From the NCBI GenBank assembly GCA_963422345.1, contig OY729425.1:2287156-2351155 (forward strand): a stretch of DNA of 64,000 nucleotides. The letters run 5' to 3'. The position numbers and the translations under genes were made by a program. The stretch comes from an uncultured Sphingomonas sp. Its GTDB lineage: Bacteria > Pseudomonadota > Alphaproteobacteria > Sphingomonadales > Sphingomonadaceae. The notes under the pieces were generated by a model, which did no database searches, had not been told where the DNA came from, and saw nothing but the letters and a program-made list of their open reading frames with translations. Shown piece by piece: positions 15,069-48,296 of the stretch (the stretch's first letter is position 1; each line of letters opens with the position of its first letter).

Positions 15069-15739
15069 GCCAACCGCCCTTCAGCCAGCCTCACAACCCG
15101 ATCCATCTTGTGCGCCAGCCGCTCATTGTGCGTCGCGACCAGTGCGGCTGATCCTTCGCCACGCACCAGCCTGAGAAACTCTGCCAGCACGACATCGGCC
15201 GTTGCCTCGTCAAGGTTGCCGGTCGGTTCGTCCGCCAGCACCAGCGCCGGCTTGTTGGCAAGCGCCCGCGCGACCGCAACGCGCTGCTGCTCGCCGCCCG
15301 AAAGCTGGCTCGGGCGATGCGTCAGCCGGTGACCCAGGCCAAGCGCCGTCAGCAGCGCGGTTGCGCGCGCATCCGCCTCGGCGCGGGTCCGGTCACGGAT
15401 CAGCTGCGGCAGAACGACATTCTCGGTCGCGTTGAAATCCGGCAGCAGGTGGTGAAACTGATAGACGAAGCCAAGGTAATCGCGCCGCAACAGCGTTCTC
15501 GCATGCGCATCAGCGCGCGACGCCTCTTCGCCTGCGATACGGATTGATCCCTGAAAACCACCCTCAAGCAACCCTACCGCCTGCAGCAAGGTTGATTTGC
15601 CCGATCCGGACGGGCCGAGCAGTGCAACAATTTCGCCCTGGCCGACGGTCAGGTCGACACCACGCAAGACCTCGATGGTTTCGCCGCCCTGGCTGAAACT
15701 GCGGGTAAGCCCGGTAACTTCCAAGATCGGGCTATTCAT
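15065..15739 (-). CDS. lolD: Lipoprotein-releasing ABC transporter ATPase
   Basis: Walker [34 protein letters not shown]; adjacent to lolE. Confidence 0.93.
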
Positions 15740-16982
15740 AGCGCAGCACCTGGACCGGGTCAGTACTCGCTGCTTTCCACGCCGGGTAAAGCGTGGCGAG
15801 GAAGCTGAACACCAGCGCCATCAAGGCGATCCCGACAATCTCGCCCGGGTTGCTCTTCGAGGGCAGCTCATCGAGAAACCGGATCGTCGGATCCCACAAA
15901 TTCTGCCCGGTCAGTTTCTGCACGATGTTCACAATGCCCTGGCGGTATTGCAGGAACAGAAATCCGAGGCACAGCCCTGCCACGACGCCCAGCGCACCAA
16001 TAGTCGTGCCAACCGTGATGAAGATTTTCATCAGCCCCCGGCGCGTCGCTCCCATCGTCCGCAGGATCGCAATATCGCGCGTCTTGGCCCGGACCAGCAT
16101 GATCAGCGACGACAGGATGTTGAATACCGCCACGAGGATGATGATCGACAGCACGGTAAACATCGCCACACGCTCAACGCCCAGCGCCTCAAATAATTGC
16201 GCGTTCATTTGCCGCCAGTCGATGACCACGGCCTGTCCGGCCACCCTGGCGCTCAGCGGCTGGAGGATCGCCTGGACACGGTCAGGATCAACCGTGTTGA
16301 CCTCGATCATCCCGACCGAATCGCCCATCAGCAACAAGGTTTGGGCATCCTCCATCGGCATCAGGATGTAGGATTTGTCATAGTCATAGACGCCAATCTC
16401 GAAAATCGCGCCGACCTTGTACGACACGATCCGTGGCATTGTTCCGAACGGCGTCGTCTGACCCTGTGGACTGATCAGTGAAATGTCGCTGCCAATCGTC
16501 GCACCAAGATTTTCGGCCAGGCGTGATCCGATCGCGATATTGTTGCTGCCAGCGGTTACCTTGGCGAGTGACCCGAGCACGATCTTGTCGCCGATACTGG
16601 CGTTGCGGCGCAGATCCTCAACCCGCATTCCCCGCAGCAGGACGGCTTCCACGCGACCATTGTAACTGGTCATCAATGGCTGTTCGATCATTGGGGTCGC
16701 GCTGGTCACGCCGGGTGTGGCATTGGCCACGTCGATCACGTGACGCCAGTTGGGCATCTGGCCGCCGATGCCCTGCACCACGGCATGGCCGTTCAGTCCG
16801 ACAATCTTGTCGAACAGCTCGGCGCGAAAGCCGTTCATGACGCTCATCACGATCACAAGGGCCGCGACGCCCAGCATCACCGCGAACCAGCTGATCATCG
16901 CGACGAGAAATATAAAGGCCTCGCCCTTGCCCGGCAGCAAATAACGCCGCGCAATCATGGCTTCATAGCGGGACAAGATCAT
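15732..16982 (-). CDS. lolE: Lipoprotein-releasing ABC transporter permease (LolC/E)
   Basis: [43 protein letters not shown]. Start trimmed to ATG 16982. Confidence 0.93.
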
Positions 16983-17175
16983 GCGGGCGCCGGCACCAAG
17001 GCTGGAGGATGTCGCTGCCTCTAGGCGCTGGCTTCGCCGGTGGCAACAGAAACGGCCTGTTGCGCAATCGCCACAGCTTCGCCGCAATCGCTTCAGTTTG
17101 GACATATTCCCGGTGACAAATCCAACAGCCCTGCCTAGCAATCAACGCGCTGAGACACAGGCAATGGCCGTGGTT

Positions 17176-17285
17176 CGGGGAAGGATTGAAGCCCCGCCTT
17201 GCAAAAGGTGCGCGGGCAACATCCGAAGGGGGCTGACGAGTGATCGTCACGCAGGCGCCCGGACTGGAAACGGTCCGGGCGTTTT
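17176..17285 (+). ncRNA. Candidate structured RNA (unidentified sRNA or cis element)
   Basis: Three GNRA-capped hairpins on the plus strand: CCTT-GCAA-AAGG, TGACGA-GTGA-TCGTCA and CCCGGACTG-GAAA-CGGTCCGGG followed by a T tract. No family recognised. Confidence 0.5.
17256..17285 (+). terminator. Rho-independent terminator oriented for a plus-strand transcript
   Basis: CGCCCGGACTG-GAAA-CGGTCCGGGCG followed by TTTT. Confidence 0.7.
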
Positions 17286-17374
17286 CCGTTTATGGTCGGT
17301 TGCCCGACGCACAATGTTGCGAACAGGCGCACGGCGCGGAAGACGGCCTTTGACCGCTCCCGCGCCGTCGTTCG

Positions 17375-19792
17375 TCAGAACCGCTTTGAGATTGTAGCGC
17401 CAAAGGTGCGCGGGTCGCCGGGTTGGCCGACGATCAGGCCCGTGCTGCCCGATTGCGCAGTCAATATCTCGAAATAGTTATGGTTGAAGGCGTTGCGCAC
17501 CCAGCCATAGATATTGAAGCCATCATGGCGGTATCCGAGCCGAAAGTTCGACAGTGAATAGCCGGCGATGTCCATATAGGCCGAACGCGACGGGTTCGAC
17601 GAAAATTTGGAACGGTAACTGCCGTCGTAGCCGAGATAGACCTCACCGTTCGCGACCGGCACGTTATACTCGGCGCCAAAGGAGAAAGCCCATTTCGAGA
17701 TACCGGGGAGCAATTGCCCCGAGATGTCGCAGGTCAGCGGGCTGAGCCCCGGCGTGCCGGCGGGCGCTGGCGTTGCACCGTTCAGGGCAGGATTGCCGCC
17801 AGACAGTTCCGGTGGGCATGGCGCGTTGGTGAAGCGCACATATTTGGCGTCAGTGAACGCGCCATTGACATAGACACTGAAGCGCTGATTCGGACGGAAC
17901 GAAGAATCAAATTCCACGCCACGCACGCGCACCTTGCCGGCATTGGCCAGATAACCCCGGATTACCGTGGTCTGGCCGTTGTTCACCGTCGCCTGATAGT
18001 CAGCGATCTCGGTCCAGAACCCCGCGAGATTGAGTGTCACGCGCCGGTCGAGAAACTGGGTCTTGAGGCCAAGCTCGAAGTGGTTGACCTTTTCCGGCTT
18101 CACCGTCTGCGTTGTGAGATCGACGGCGGTATTGGTCGCATTGAGCGGCAGGCCGGAGAGATTGATGCCGCCGGATTTGAAGCTGCGCGCATAGGTTGCA
18201 TAGCCATGAATGTCGGTGCTGAAGTCGTAGGACAAGGTCAGGTCGCCAGACACATTCCATGCGCTGAAGCGTGGCGCATAGGATTGCGGCGCAAGCGTGT
18301 TGAGCTGGTCCGCATTGAGTACATTGCTGCCCGTGCCGGTCGTGACCACCGACACATAGGAACCACTTTTGCGATCATAATTGACGCGCAAACCGGGCTG
18401 GATGTGAAAGCGATCAAGAACCTCCCAGTTCAGCTTGCCGAACACCGCGAAGCTGGTGTTGTCGAAATCGATCGTGTTGCGGCTGGTCAGGCCGTCAAGG
18501 ATTGCGGGGTTGCAGGCATTCGCCGTTACCGGCGCACAGGCGCTTGAACCTACCGCAACCGCCCCGCCAGGGTTGAGCAGCCAGCGACTGGCCGCCGGTC
18601 CCTGGACCTGCAGGCCGTCGGTGTGGATCGTCTGGTTGAAGAAGAAGGCGCCGAGCGTGTATTGCAATCGCGATTTGCCGTTCGATGCCAGGCGCAGTTC
18701 CTGTGAATATTGCGTCTGATGGGACGGATTGGCCGATACCGTGGTGATCGGCAGGCCGGTAAAGTCGCGGTCATTGGCGGGTTTCCAGTCCCAGTTGCGC
18801 CATGCGCTTACCGAGGTGATCGTCGCCAGACCAATATCCCAGTTACCGACCAGCGAAACACCGGCCATGGTCTGCTTCGAGTTCAGCTTGGCATCGACAT
18901 CGGTGATGCGATCGAACGGGTTGGTGCTTGGTGGCGTATAGTTGAAAGCTGCGGCTAGCGCGGCATATTGCCGGTTCAGCGGGCGCTGCGTCGCCCCGAC
19001 ACGCGCATAATATTGCACGCAACAGGTGGGATTCTGGATATTATAGTCACCTGCCAGGGTAAAATCGAGACCCGGCGCCGGTTTCCACAATAGCTGTCCG
19101 CGTGCGCTGAAATTGTCCTGCCGGTGGATGTCCTCGCCGGTCTTGACGTTAAAGATCGTTCCCTTGCGGCCGGTGCGCGAAACGGAAAGGCGCACCGCCA
19201 GCGCGTCGGCGATAATGGGTGCTGATGCGGAAGCCTTGATTTGCAGATAGCCATAGTTGCCGGTGCTGGCTTCGAACCGTGCCTCGGGAGTGAAGCTTGG
19301 CGCGCGGGTCGTCACGTTGATTGCCCCGGCAGTGGTGTTCTTGCCGTACAATGTGCCTTGTGGACCGCGCAGCACCTCGACCCGTTCGACATCAACAAAA
19401 TCGAACGTCGCCGCACCCGCGCGCCCGACATAGACACCATCAAGATAGAAACCGACGCCCTGTTCGATACCGTCATTGGTCAGGCCAAATGGCGCACCCA
19501 GGCCGCGAATATTGATCGCCGAATTGCGCGGGTTGCTTGAATAGAATTGCAACGATGGCTGGAGCTGTTGCAGCCGGCTAACGTTAAAGGCGCCTGTCTT
19601 GGCAAGTTCGCCACCGGTGATCACCGACAGGGCAATCGGCACATCCTGCGCCCTTTCCTGGCGACGCTGCGCGGTCACGACGATGTCGACCGGCGCGGCA
19701 GCCTCCTGCGTCACACTGGAGTCGGTATCTGGCGGCGGCGCTGATGTGATGGGCGCTGCGGATGCGAGAAGCACGGCAAAGGTCGAAAACAT
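17375..19792 (-). CDS. TonB-dependent receptor
   Basis: Signal peptide, TonB-box-like DIVVTAQRR, plug motif VEVLRGPQGTLYGKNTTAGAINV, C-terminal Phe. Confidence 0.95.
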   Translation of the reverse strand: MFSTFAVLLASAAPITSAPPPDTDSSVTQEAAAPVDIVVTAQRRQERAQDVPIALSVITGGELAKTGAFNVSRLQQLQPSLQFYSSNPRNSAINIRGLGAPFGLTNDGIEQGVGFYLDGVYVGRAGAATFDFVDVERVEVLRGPQGTLYGKNTTAGAINVTTRAPSFTPEARFEASTGNYGYLQIKASASAPIIADALAVRLSVSRTGRKGTIFNVKTGEDIHRQDNFSARGQLLWKPAPGLDFTLAGDYNIQNPTCCVQYYARVGATQRPLNRQYAALAAAFNYTPPSTNPFDRITDVDAKLNSKQTMAGVSLVGNWDIGLATITSVSAWRNWDWKPANDRDFTGLPITTVSANPSHQTQYSQELRLASNGKSRLQYTLGAFFFNQTIHTDGLQVQGPAASRWLLNPGGAVAVGSSACAPVTANACNPAILDGLTSRNTIDFDNTSFAVFGKLNWEVLDRFHIQPGLRVNYDRKSGSYVSVVTTGTGSNVLNADQLNTLAPQSYAPRFSAWNVSGDLTLSYDFSTDIHGYATYARSFKSGGINLSGLPLNATNTAVDLTTQTVKPEKVNHFELGLKTQFLDRRVTLNLAGFWTEIADYQATVNNGQTTVIRGYLANAGKVRVRGVEFDSSFRPNQRFSVYVNGAFTDAKYVRFTNAPCPPELSGGNPALNGATPAPAGTPGLSPLTCDISGQLLPGISKWAFSFGAEYNVPVANGEVYLGYDGSYRSKFSSNPSRSAYMDIAGYSLSNFRLGYRHDGFNIYGWVRNAFNHNYFEILTAQSGSTGLIVGQPGDPRTFGATISKRF

Positions 19793-19820
19793 GAAGCGTC
19801 CCCCGTTTGAGTCGGCTTTA

Positions 19821-20508: not shown

Positions 20509-20535
20509 GCTGCGGCTTTACGGCTGAATGAGTTG

Positions 20536-20567
20536 GGGCGTCCGGAGCAATCCGGGCGCCCTTTTTC
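20536..20567 (+). terminator. Rho-independent terminator of ibpA
   Basis: GGGCGTCCGGA-GCAA-TCCGGGCGCCC followed by TTTTT. Confidence 0.85.
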
Positions 20568-20576
20568 TTCTTCTTT

Positions 20577-40015: not shown

Positions 40016-40052
40016 GGGTCGTCCGGAGCAATCCGGGCGGCCCTTTCCTTTT
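40016..40052 (+). terminator. Rho-independent terminator of rpsF-rpsR-rplI
   Basis: GGGTCGTCCGGA-GCAA-TCCGGGCGGCCC followed by TTTCCTTTT. Confidence 0.85.

Positions 40053-48220: not shown

Positions 48221-48296
<76 letters not shown>

Follow-up and report, generated by a model that had tools for sequence, protein, structure and literature searches.

The stretch considered here, a window of 64,000 nt on contig OY729425.1 of an uncultured Sphingomonas sp., raises the question of what is encoded in the 392-bp spacer between lolE and the gene for a TonB-dependent receptor: both genes lie on the minus strand, as gene calls and domain matches agree, yet the spacer contains a terminator with its T tract on the plus strand. 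A first-pass annotation of the sequence had read the region as a plus-strand small RNA (sRNA) gene that is divergent from lolE and possibly switch-like. Here, we describe this element as a structured sRNA gene of ~140 nt on the plus strand with an intrinsic terminator of its own, and covariance-model and covariation data make us highly confident that the gene is real. As to how it works, we favor, with moderate confidence, a single-copy gene with its own promoter and terminator whose structured product acts in trans via a G-rich 3′ module. The parts of the RNA gene are:

17148 to 17290, plus strand: sRNA of ~140 nt, with a predicted 5′ end (within ~3 nt) and the 3′ end inside the U-tract (17282-17291)
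17150 to 17178, plus strand: 5′ domain with helix P1, in which CUGA (17150-17153) pairs with UCGG (17175-17178); encloses P2
17156 to 17172, plus strand: P2 hairpin, CAC(A)GGC (17156-17162), loop AAUG (17163-17166), GCCGUG (17167-17172)
17173 to 17181, plus strand: first G-tract motif, GGUUCGGGGA, at least 97% identity in 72 synteny-derived homologues
17183 to 17224, plus strand: P3, a long imperfect hairpin of variable sequence and length, loop GCAAA (17201-17205)
17226 to 17232, plus strand: second G-tract, AAGGGGG, unpaired in the consensus except for G17232-C17252 at the base of P4; candidate seed or binding site
17232 to 17252, plus strand: P4, GC-UGACGA pairing with UCGUCA-(C)-GC, GNRA loop GUGA (17240-17243)
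17256 to 17291, plus strand: intrinsic terminator, stem 17256-17266/17271-17281 (11 bp), loop GAAA (17267-17270), U-tract UUUUCCGUUU (17282-17291)

The terminator had been placed correctly at first pass. It consists of a GC-rich 11-bp stem followed by UUUU on the plus strand, with the letters GCCCGGAC...GTCCGGGC at 17257-17280 of the hairpin at 17256-17281 and then TTTT at 17282-17285; a terminator scan also flags the site, and the T-run is found on the plus strand only. Folded on its own, the 131-nt stretch reaches −63.2 kcal/mol (z = −2.70), a value equaled by 3 of 200 shuffles. Because this is only modestly beyond chance, the case for an RNA rests on genome comparison.

For this comparison, 80 loci with LolE relatives were taken from contigs representing one genome per species, and the spacers were compared by blastn. 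The sequence at ~17132-17284 of the window is shared by ~73 of the 80 loci, always upstream of lolE and on the opposite strand, and the similarity always ends at 17284, i.e., in the U-tract of the terminator. In a plain MAFFT alignment, the right arm of P3 was placed in two registers, and RNAalifold consequently missed P3. We therefore seeded a covariance model from 31 sequences in a single register with a structure that we specified and realigned all hits, which gave an alignment of 72 sequences. The model matches the window at 17145-17292 on the plus strand with 143.5 bits (E = 4e-35), while the 20 bits on the reverse strand stem from the palindromic terminator alone. It also matches upstream of lolE in 75 of the 80 Sphingomonadaceae loci (69-167 bits). 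A metagenome scan for the P4 core matched at least 120 contigs, and the model matches 79 of the 80 that were listed. Together with one isolate, ‘Sphingomonas segetis’, the 75 lolE-adjacent loci and the 79 metagenome contigs make up ~150 homologues. Since the scan pattern required the P4 core, invariance of this core in the metagenome set is by construction, and the synteny-derived set provides the unbiased evidence for it.

Three blocks make up the alignment: on the 5′ side, CACAGGC-AAY-GGCCGUGGUUCGGGGA, which is invariant; in the middle, a segment whose sequence and length change from species to species; and on the 3′ side, the near-invariant AAGGGGGCUGACGA-GNRA-UCGUCACGCAGG, after which come a GC-rich hairpin and GUUUGC(U)n. 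The RNA is 135-171 nt long among homologues, with indels only in P3, and the GGGGG of the second G-tract is present in 72 of 72 synteny-derived homologues. While the window LolE is 86% identical to LolE from Sphingomonas metagenome-assembled genomes (MAGs) and isolates, ~45 nt of the RNA are virtually invariant across genera whose LolE proteins share only 62-70% identity, which implies an important conserved partner.

The changes that do occur preserve pairing. In the 72-sequence alignment, 94.9% of the cells are paired compared to 86.7% in shuffles and 30-46% with the partners slid, 29 of 45 pairs have compensatory, two-sided changes, and none of 500 shuffles matches any of the observed measures. 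Compensatory changes are found in four of the six pairs of P2, all 16 modeled pairs of P3, and eight of the 11 pairs of the terminator. P1 has one-sided changes only, which preserve pairing (UG/CG/UA, AU/GU) opposite an invariant GUUCGG, and the P4 stem is almost invariant, with C17233-G17251 changed on both sides in two sequences. It counts against this evidence that the numbers come from an alignment fitted to the model and are biased toward its structure. The argument is nevertheless not circular because the slid controls agree, as do independent folds of each sequence, in which the P3 segment forms one long hairpin in 71 of 71 homologues despite divergent sequences. Moreover, 273 cells are G-U pairs against 37 A-C mismatches, and pairing drops from 94.9% on the plus strand to 87.3% on the minus strand; hence, the RNA is on the plus strand. 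Thus, the search for homologues and covariation that had been suggested at first pass was positive for both, in ~73 loci and in 29 of 45 pairs.

The predicted fold is a row of helices, with P1 and P2 forming the 5′ domain, followed by P3, AAGGGGG, P4, and the terminator, and it departs from the fold that the first-pass annotation had drawn. Most of the motifs on which that fold was built are exactly where it had placed them (GCAA at 17201-17204, GTGA at 17240-17243, AGCCCC at 17190-17195, GGGGCT at 17229-17234, and CGGGG at 17176-17180), and the GAAA loop of the terminator is present as well, shifted by 1 nt (17267-17270 rather than 17268-17271). Among the three GNRA loops, the one in P4 is kept as GNRA in 57 of 72 sequences and the one in the terminator in at least 51, while the GCAA of the middle hairpin is not conserved. 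The three-way junction closed by AGCCCC and GGGGCT does not survive the comparison: GGGGGCU is invariant, AGCCCC varies without compensation (AGCGCC, AGCUCC, AACGCC, among others), and the segment between the G-tracts is the single P3 hairpin described above. The bases assigned to a CGGG-CAACA-UCCG hairpin (17213-17225) instead form the 3′ strand of P3. With the C-run not conserved, the alternative pairing is not conserved either, and the proposal of two mutually exclusive folds falls with it. A hammerhead reading of CUGANGA...GAAA was also rejected, as there is no match to an Rfam ribozyme and CUGACGA is paired inside P4.

The absence of a known RNA family and of a credible protein-coding open reading frame (ORF), both stated at first pass, was confirmed. 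At the gathering threshold, Rfam 15 finds only a tRNA at 48221 in the window and only tRNAs in 22 homologous loci, and 10 divergent loci have no match. Over positions 16900-17450 and at E up to 10, the best match is RT-15 (RF03018), a chance match in the 3′ flank of the receptor gene (17292-17374) at 19.6 bits against a threshold of 82; other chance matches below threshold were ncS037 (RF02868) and, in one of 12 loci, SorX (RF02784; 21.4 against 46.6 bits). The tmRNA, 6S, and SRP models do not reach their gathering thresholds, the suhB model (RF00519) matches neither the window nor the 22 loci even at E up to 5-10, and ARAGORN detects no tRNA or tmRNA at the sRNA locus. The core sequence does not occur in searchable paper texts, and a literature search for sphingomonad sRNAs turned up only SuhB and the Zymomonas Zms RNAs. 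No ORF is conserved over the stretch: there is no conserved start codon or frame, and most homologues have GCG or GCA in place of the GTG at 17240. The RNA is thus a previously uncatalogued family that is absent from Rfam 15 and is shared by Sphingomonas and soil bacteria related to it.

Many of the metagenome members are far more divergent in the 5′ two-thirds of the RNA but keep the 3′ module nearly letter for letter, and some divergent members carry (A)CUGGGGA(C/A) in hairpin loops. In one divergent group, the RNA is found at a distance of 134-214 nt in front of a gene for a class II prolyl-tRNA synthetase (ProRS) of 440 aa, proS, which points the opposite way and overlaps lolE and lolD (proS-lolE-lolD). 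These proS-linked members share the architecture of the 5′ domain (CCGAAC...GUUCGG). Their ProRS shares 92-93% identity with proteins from Sphingomicrobium MAGs and from ‘Sphingomonas segetis’, and the group is Sphingomicrobium-like. The ‘S. segetis’ genome (GCA_009720245.1, WJSQ01000002.1) itself contains an unannotated homologue 186 nt upstream of proS (L201:2170-2315, minus strand, 65.7 bits). By contrast, Sphingomonas proper has no proS at the locus, and lolE is 128-212 nt from the RNA. Named carriers also include Stakelama and Allosphingosinicella MAGs, while three more distant, Novosphingobium-like loci (L063, L064, and L067) have no covariance-model match. Across these lineages, the position divergent from lolE or proS-lolE-lolD is constant and the downstream gene varies.

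Upstream of the RNA, three further elements are conserved:

17113 to 17118, plus strand: −35-like hexamer of the sRNA gene, GTGACA, kept as (G/A)TGACA; predicted
17135 to 17141, plus strand: −10-like box of the sRNA gene, CTAGCAA, with the TA core C(C/T)TA(G/A)C kept, 16-17 nt past the −35
17057 to 17090, no strand assigned: imperfect inverted repeat CTGTTGCG-CAAT-CGCCACAG (17057-17076) plus GCAATCG (17084-17090), between the divergent lolE and sRNA promoters

In every lineage, the spacer of 17 nt between the two hexamers lacks both sequence conservation and indels, and in Sphingomonas as well as in the proS-linked lineages, the −10-like box is separated by 8-11 variable nt from the first conserved base of the RNA. 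Because the hexamers are conserved and the spacer between them is fixed in length but not in sequence, GTGACA-N17-CTAGCA shows promoter-like behavior; its position places the predicted start near 17148 and would give an RNA of ~140 nt. A simple scan for E. coli-type promoters found none at the locus. Two other readings of these sequences were rejected: GTGACA as the loop of an RNA hairpin, since a flanking stem of at least 4 bp is present in 60 of 129 sequences, which is about the chance level, and TGGCAAC...TTGCG as a sigma-54 promoter, since the GG-GC spacing, judged by eye, is 15-22 nt rather than 12. Every lineage, the proS-linked ones included, retains the inverted repeat (consensus CTGTKGCG-N4-CGMCACAG) in the form (C)TGTG-N10-CACA(G) with GCAATC or GCAAAAGC after it, and the repeat includes TGT-N10/12-ACA and T-N11-A. 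Because its inner positions vary without compensation, this repeat is probably an operator-like DNA site for a regulator and not an RNA helix.

We suggest that a promoter of the sigma-70 type, GTGACA-N17-CTAGCA, which points away from the lolE promoter, would drive transcription as far as the intrinsic terminator, and the upstream inverted repeat suggests that this transcription would be regulated. A cut immediately 5′ of the G-tract may first separate the 3′ module from the variable 5′ part. This near-invariant module (AAGGGGGCUGACGA and the hairpin) would be the functional part, with the unpaired AAGGGGG, possibly extending into CUGACGA, as the candidate seed for pairing with C/U-rich sequences in mRNAs or with the C-rich seeds of other sRNAs. 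Two unpaired motifs, AAGGGGG and GGGGA, are conserved. The Shine-Dalgarno (SD) region of the receptor gene (19793-19810, minus strand, upstream of ATG 19792) reads ACGGGGGACGCUUCAUG, in which GGGGGA is the SD. Hence, G5 tracts serve as SDs here, and the G-tracts of the sRNA look SD-like, which makes the anti-SD seeds of other sRNAs attractive partners; the RNA would then be a sponge. We lean toward a regulator that acts in trans, whereas base-pairing through the G-rich module is a tentative proposal to which we give somewhat less than even weight.

Several observations count against this proposal. RNAduplex over all ORF starts in the window gave no target that stands out, in a search that is uninformative in GC-rich sequence; complements of the seed occur six times against 6.07 expected; and the translation-initiation regions of lolE and the receptor gene have no specific complementarity to the RNA. 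The G-tracts are barely enriched (2.2 per RNA compared to 1.7 in shuffles) and are only partly accessible by thermodynamic folding. Finally, the invariant P4 stem would fit recognition by a protein at least as well as a seed.

This last point leads to an alternative in which P4 and the flanking G-tracts, together with the extra (A)CUGGGGA loops, are recognized by a conserved protein that the RNA titrates or delivers in the manner of CsrB/RsmZ or 6S RNA. We consider it unlikely, although it is far from negligible. In its favor, the P4 stem is invariant in sequence instead of covarying and is capped by a GNRA loop in 57 of 72 sequences; against it, there are only two to three G-tracts per RNA, weakly enriched over shuffles. 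In a more specific version, which would fit the ancestral position beside proS, the partner could be ProRS or TrmD: (C)UGGGGA, CUGGGGA, and UUCGGGGA resemble the anticodon loop of tRNA-Pro (U33-NGG-G37-A38), the proS-linked members carry ACUGGGGA(C/A) in hairpin loops, and in their lineages, the gene is 134-214 nt from proS. However, two of the three motif types differ from this loop by an additional G, and Sphingomonas proper keeps the RNA although proS is no longer adjacent. The tRNAs near the locus are tRNA-Met and tRNA-Lys, and tRNA-Pro is absent among them. Several proS-linked contigs (L104, L145, L156, L093, L111, and L139) share one and the same tRNA-Met (CAT) gene, located ~0.4 to several kb downstream of the sRNA and opposite to it in strand. 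A related and still more doubtful idea is that of a decoy in place of an ordinary antisense regulator, in which the G-rich elements mimic SDs or the tRNA-Pro anticodon loop (CUGGGGA/UUCGGG(G)A) and titrate the C/U-rich seeds of anti-SD sRNAs or ProRS/TrmD. In this order, mRNAs of TonB receptors are repressed by SuhB-like RNAs. If true, the enzyme-decoy option would explain why the gene has stayed beside the proS-lolE-lolD promoter across genera.

Expression of the sRNA is likely. RNA runs of a related sample gave nothing informative for the organism of the window, but homologous sequences are present in contigs of many RNA-labeled runs, including metatranscriptomes of soil, peat, wastewater, and sludge as well as host transcriptomes. 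In four runs (X49, X51, X52, and X62), the contig stops −8 to +25 nt from the predicted 5′ end and extends 32-97 nt beyond the terminator. In X53 and X54, which represent different strains, an adapter-flanked fragment of ~137 nt with identical ends (L027:3752-3889, corresponding to ~17090-17226 of the window) ends exactly at the junction between P3 and the G-tract, before GGGGG, and in X54, the 3′ module is without coverage. That both ends coincide in two strains speaks for a natural RNA species and for cleavage immediately 5′ of GGGGG.

The same data speak in part against the promoter assignment. The ~137-nt fragment begins ~50 nt upstream of the predicted start, just after GCAATC, and contigs of four other runs (X46, X47, X50, and X55) reach 60-140 nt upstream of that start; the metatranscriptome contigs also cover the flanks. 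Public RNA contigs are, moreover, unstranded and may contain DNA, and Sphingomonas is a common reagent contaminant. The assignment of the promoter or of the predicted 5′ end may be incomplete, and the upstream end of the fragment could be a second start, a product of processing of a longer precursor, or a piece of lolE-sense read-through RNA from the receptor gene. Taken at face value, both the shared fragment ends in two strains and the upstream contigs would fit a longer transcript, in which the conserved block is the 3′ part of a processed RNA that starts at least ~50 nt upstream (~17090 or beyond) and the hexamers are internal. We regard this as rather improbable: the unconserved spacer of fixed length between the hexamers is promoter behavior; the region has neither a hairpin nor covariation beyond the chance level noted above (60 of 129); the upstream end is not preceded by anything promoter-like; contigs of four other runs stop at the predicted start; and the upstream coverage could also come from opposite-strand RNA that reads through from the receptor gene.

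The genes on the far side of the terminator bear on whether the element acts in cis, either as a riboswitch or attenuator leader of a plus-strand gene or as a terminator or insulator that stops read-through from the receptor gene into lolE. It does end in a terminator, as an expression platform would, and in Sphingomonas, it sits between two codirectional genes. In the Sphingomicrobium-like, proS-linked group, and only there, a gene for a Cys/Met pyridoxal phosphate (PLP) enzyme lies downstream on the same strand, at 39-1263 nt, and in two cases at 39-64 nt. However, the window and ~51 relatives have a convergent gene next to the RNA (the orthologous receptor gene in 51 of 80 loci), other members are separated from the downstream gene by 400-1260 nt with intervening ORFs, and the receptor gene is missing from other loci that keep the sRNA. 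This variable downstream neighbor rules out a riboswitch or leader. A riboswitch for the PLP-enzyme gene was also rejected because the association is lineage specific and the distance variable, and terminator/antiterminator pairings because the proposed C-run is not conserved and P3 is a single hairpin in all sequences. As for termination, the lack of a minus-strand U-tract means that the terminator is not bidirectional, and a simple terminator would need neither 110 nt of covarying upstream structure nor its own promoter. A cis-acting role is, thus, very unlikely.

A second copy was absent from the 64-kb window, from each locus, and from the contigs of the isolate; a repeat of the REP (repetitive extragenic palindrome) or MITE (miniature inverted-repeat transposable element) type was rejected, since dispersed copies were not found and there is one copy per genome. 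A diverged second sRNA copy, compared over 17166-17291, is present in the samples of runs X2 and X3 on another contig, at another depth, and with a different downstream arrangement; it most likely represents a second Sphingomonas strain and not a paralogue. That the region is a repeat or mobile element, a small protein gene, or a set of chance GC-rich hairpins, as the ease with which high-GC sequence folds and an overlapping ORF (17240-17353, 37 aa, GTG start) might suggest, is refuted by copy number and conservation: the window, each locus, and the isolate assembly have a single copy, the start codon differs among homologues, length variation (135-171 nt) is confined to P3, and the position is syntenic in ~150 genomes or contigs.

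The neighboring genes and the elements in front of lolE are:

15732 to 16982, minus strand: lolE, a lolC/E-type lipoprotein-release permease (NCBIfam TIGR02212 lolCE, 417 bits; Pfam MacB_PCD and FtsX), the divergent neighbor
17019 to 17046, minus strand: lolE promoter-like elements, −35 TTGCCA (17046-17041), N16, −10 CTAGAG (17024-17019)
17375 to 19792, minus strand: TonB-dependent receptor (Pfam Plug and TonB_dep_Rec_b-barrel), convergent on the sRNA 3′ end; context only

lolE starts at the conserved ATG at 16982 and ends at 15732, and the 469-aa ORF listed from TTG 17141 is an over-extension. The lolE promoter-like elements are kept in all lineages, before lolE or proS, as CTCTAG...CTGGCAAC on the plus strand. 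In several species, TTGCCA-N16-CTAGAG is <15 nt from the ATG, and because of this proximity, the lolE or proS mRNA may have no leader or only a very short one. In the 3′ flank of the receptor gene (17292-17374), a GGCGCGG...CCGCGCC hairpin is present on the minus strand without a U-tract. Because a minus-strand U-tract is missing from this hairpin and from the sRNA terminator alike, transcription of the receptor gene could plausibly continue through the sRNA gene, antisense to it, and into lolE. Elsewhere in the window, two terminator-like hairpins, GGGNCGTCCGGAGCAATCCGGGCGNCC plus a T-run, at 20535-20569 and 40016-40050 are 89% identical at a distance of 19.5 kb and could represent a common terminator module.

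Soil, the phyllosphere, water systems, and laboratory reagents all harbor sphingomonads in abundance, yet almost none of the regulatory RNAs of these bacteria are known. The RNA described here is among their best-conserved noncoding features. The element is of an ordinary kind; the family is new, unusually well conserved, broadly distributed within Sphingomonadaceae, and tied to the promoter region of an essential operon, and with ~150 members and strong covariation, it is a clean candidate for inclusion in Rfam. Its fixed place beside an operon for lipoprotein sorting and prolyl-tRNA synthesis suggests a link to envelope or translation homeostasis. As a single gene with cultured carriers, e.g., S. 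echinoides, S. glacialis, and ‘S. segetis’, it is also an accessible experimental target.

Among known systems, AbcR1/2, αr14 (alpha-r14) ‘cuckoo’, and CcsR are trans-encoded sRNAs of Alphaproteobacteria with repeated loop motifs of the C/U-rich, anti-SD type. The RNA resembles them in having 100-150 nt, its own promoter, which is predicted in the present case, a Rho-independent terminator, and a row of hairpins, and in that a short repeated motif and the most conserved bases are unpaired. It differs in that its motifs are G-rich and SD-like (GGGGA and AAGGGGG), and the Rfam models of the three families do not match it. In the processed enterobacterial sRNAs ArcZ, RprA, and MicL, a variable 5′ part is followed by a highly conserved 3′ part with the seed immediately before the terminator, and cleavage in a single-stranded A/U-rich linker frees the active 3′ fragment. 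This organization is reminiscent of the variable 5′ part and the invariant 3′ part next to the terminator described here, with a fragment end at the junction between P3 and the G-tract; however, there is no sequence relationship, and processing is suggested here by two contigs only, in which the 3′ fragment was not seen. With CsrB/RsmZ, the RNA shares G-rich, GGA-containing motifs in loops and in linkers between hairpins as well as a terminal terminator, except that it has two to three motifs compared to 5-20, of the form GGGG(A/G) instead of A(N)GGA. CsrA is not known to be general in Alphaproteobacteria.

Outside Zymomonas, the one sphingomonad sRNA with experimental characterization that the literature search turned up is SuhB of Sphingopyxis granuli TFA, a trans-acting, Hfq-dependent sRNA of 61 nt that was annotated via the Rfam suhB model, is activated by a LysR-type regulator via a T-N11-A box upstream of its promoter, pairs around SDs and start codons, and has TonB-dependent receptors among its targets (PMC6563040; bioRxiv 10.64898/2025.12.09.693200). 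According to the 2025 preprint, it is the only sRNA characterized so far in this strain (bioRxiv 10.64898/2025.12.09.693200). Since SuhB pairs at the SD, its seed must by implication be C/U-rich, the opposite of the G-rich RNA described here, and the suhB model does not match this RNA. Nevertheless, both RNAs belong to the same bacterial order, the 61 nt of SuhB are about the size of the 3′ module, and the inverted repeat upstream of the sRNA promoter also holds a T-N11-A motif.

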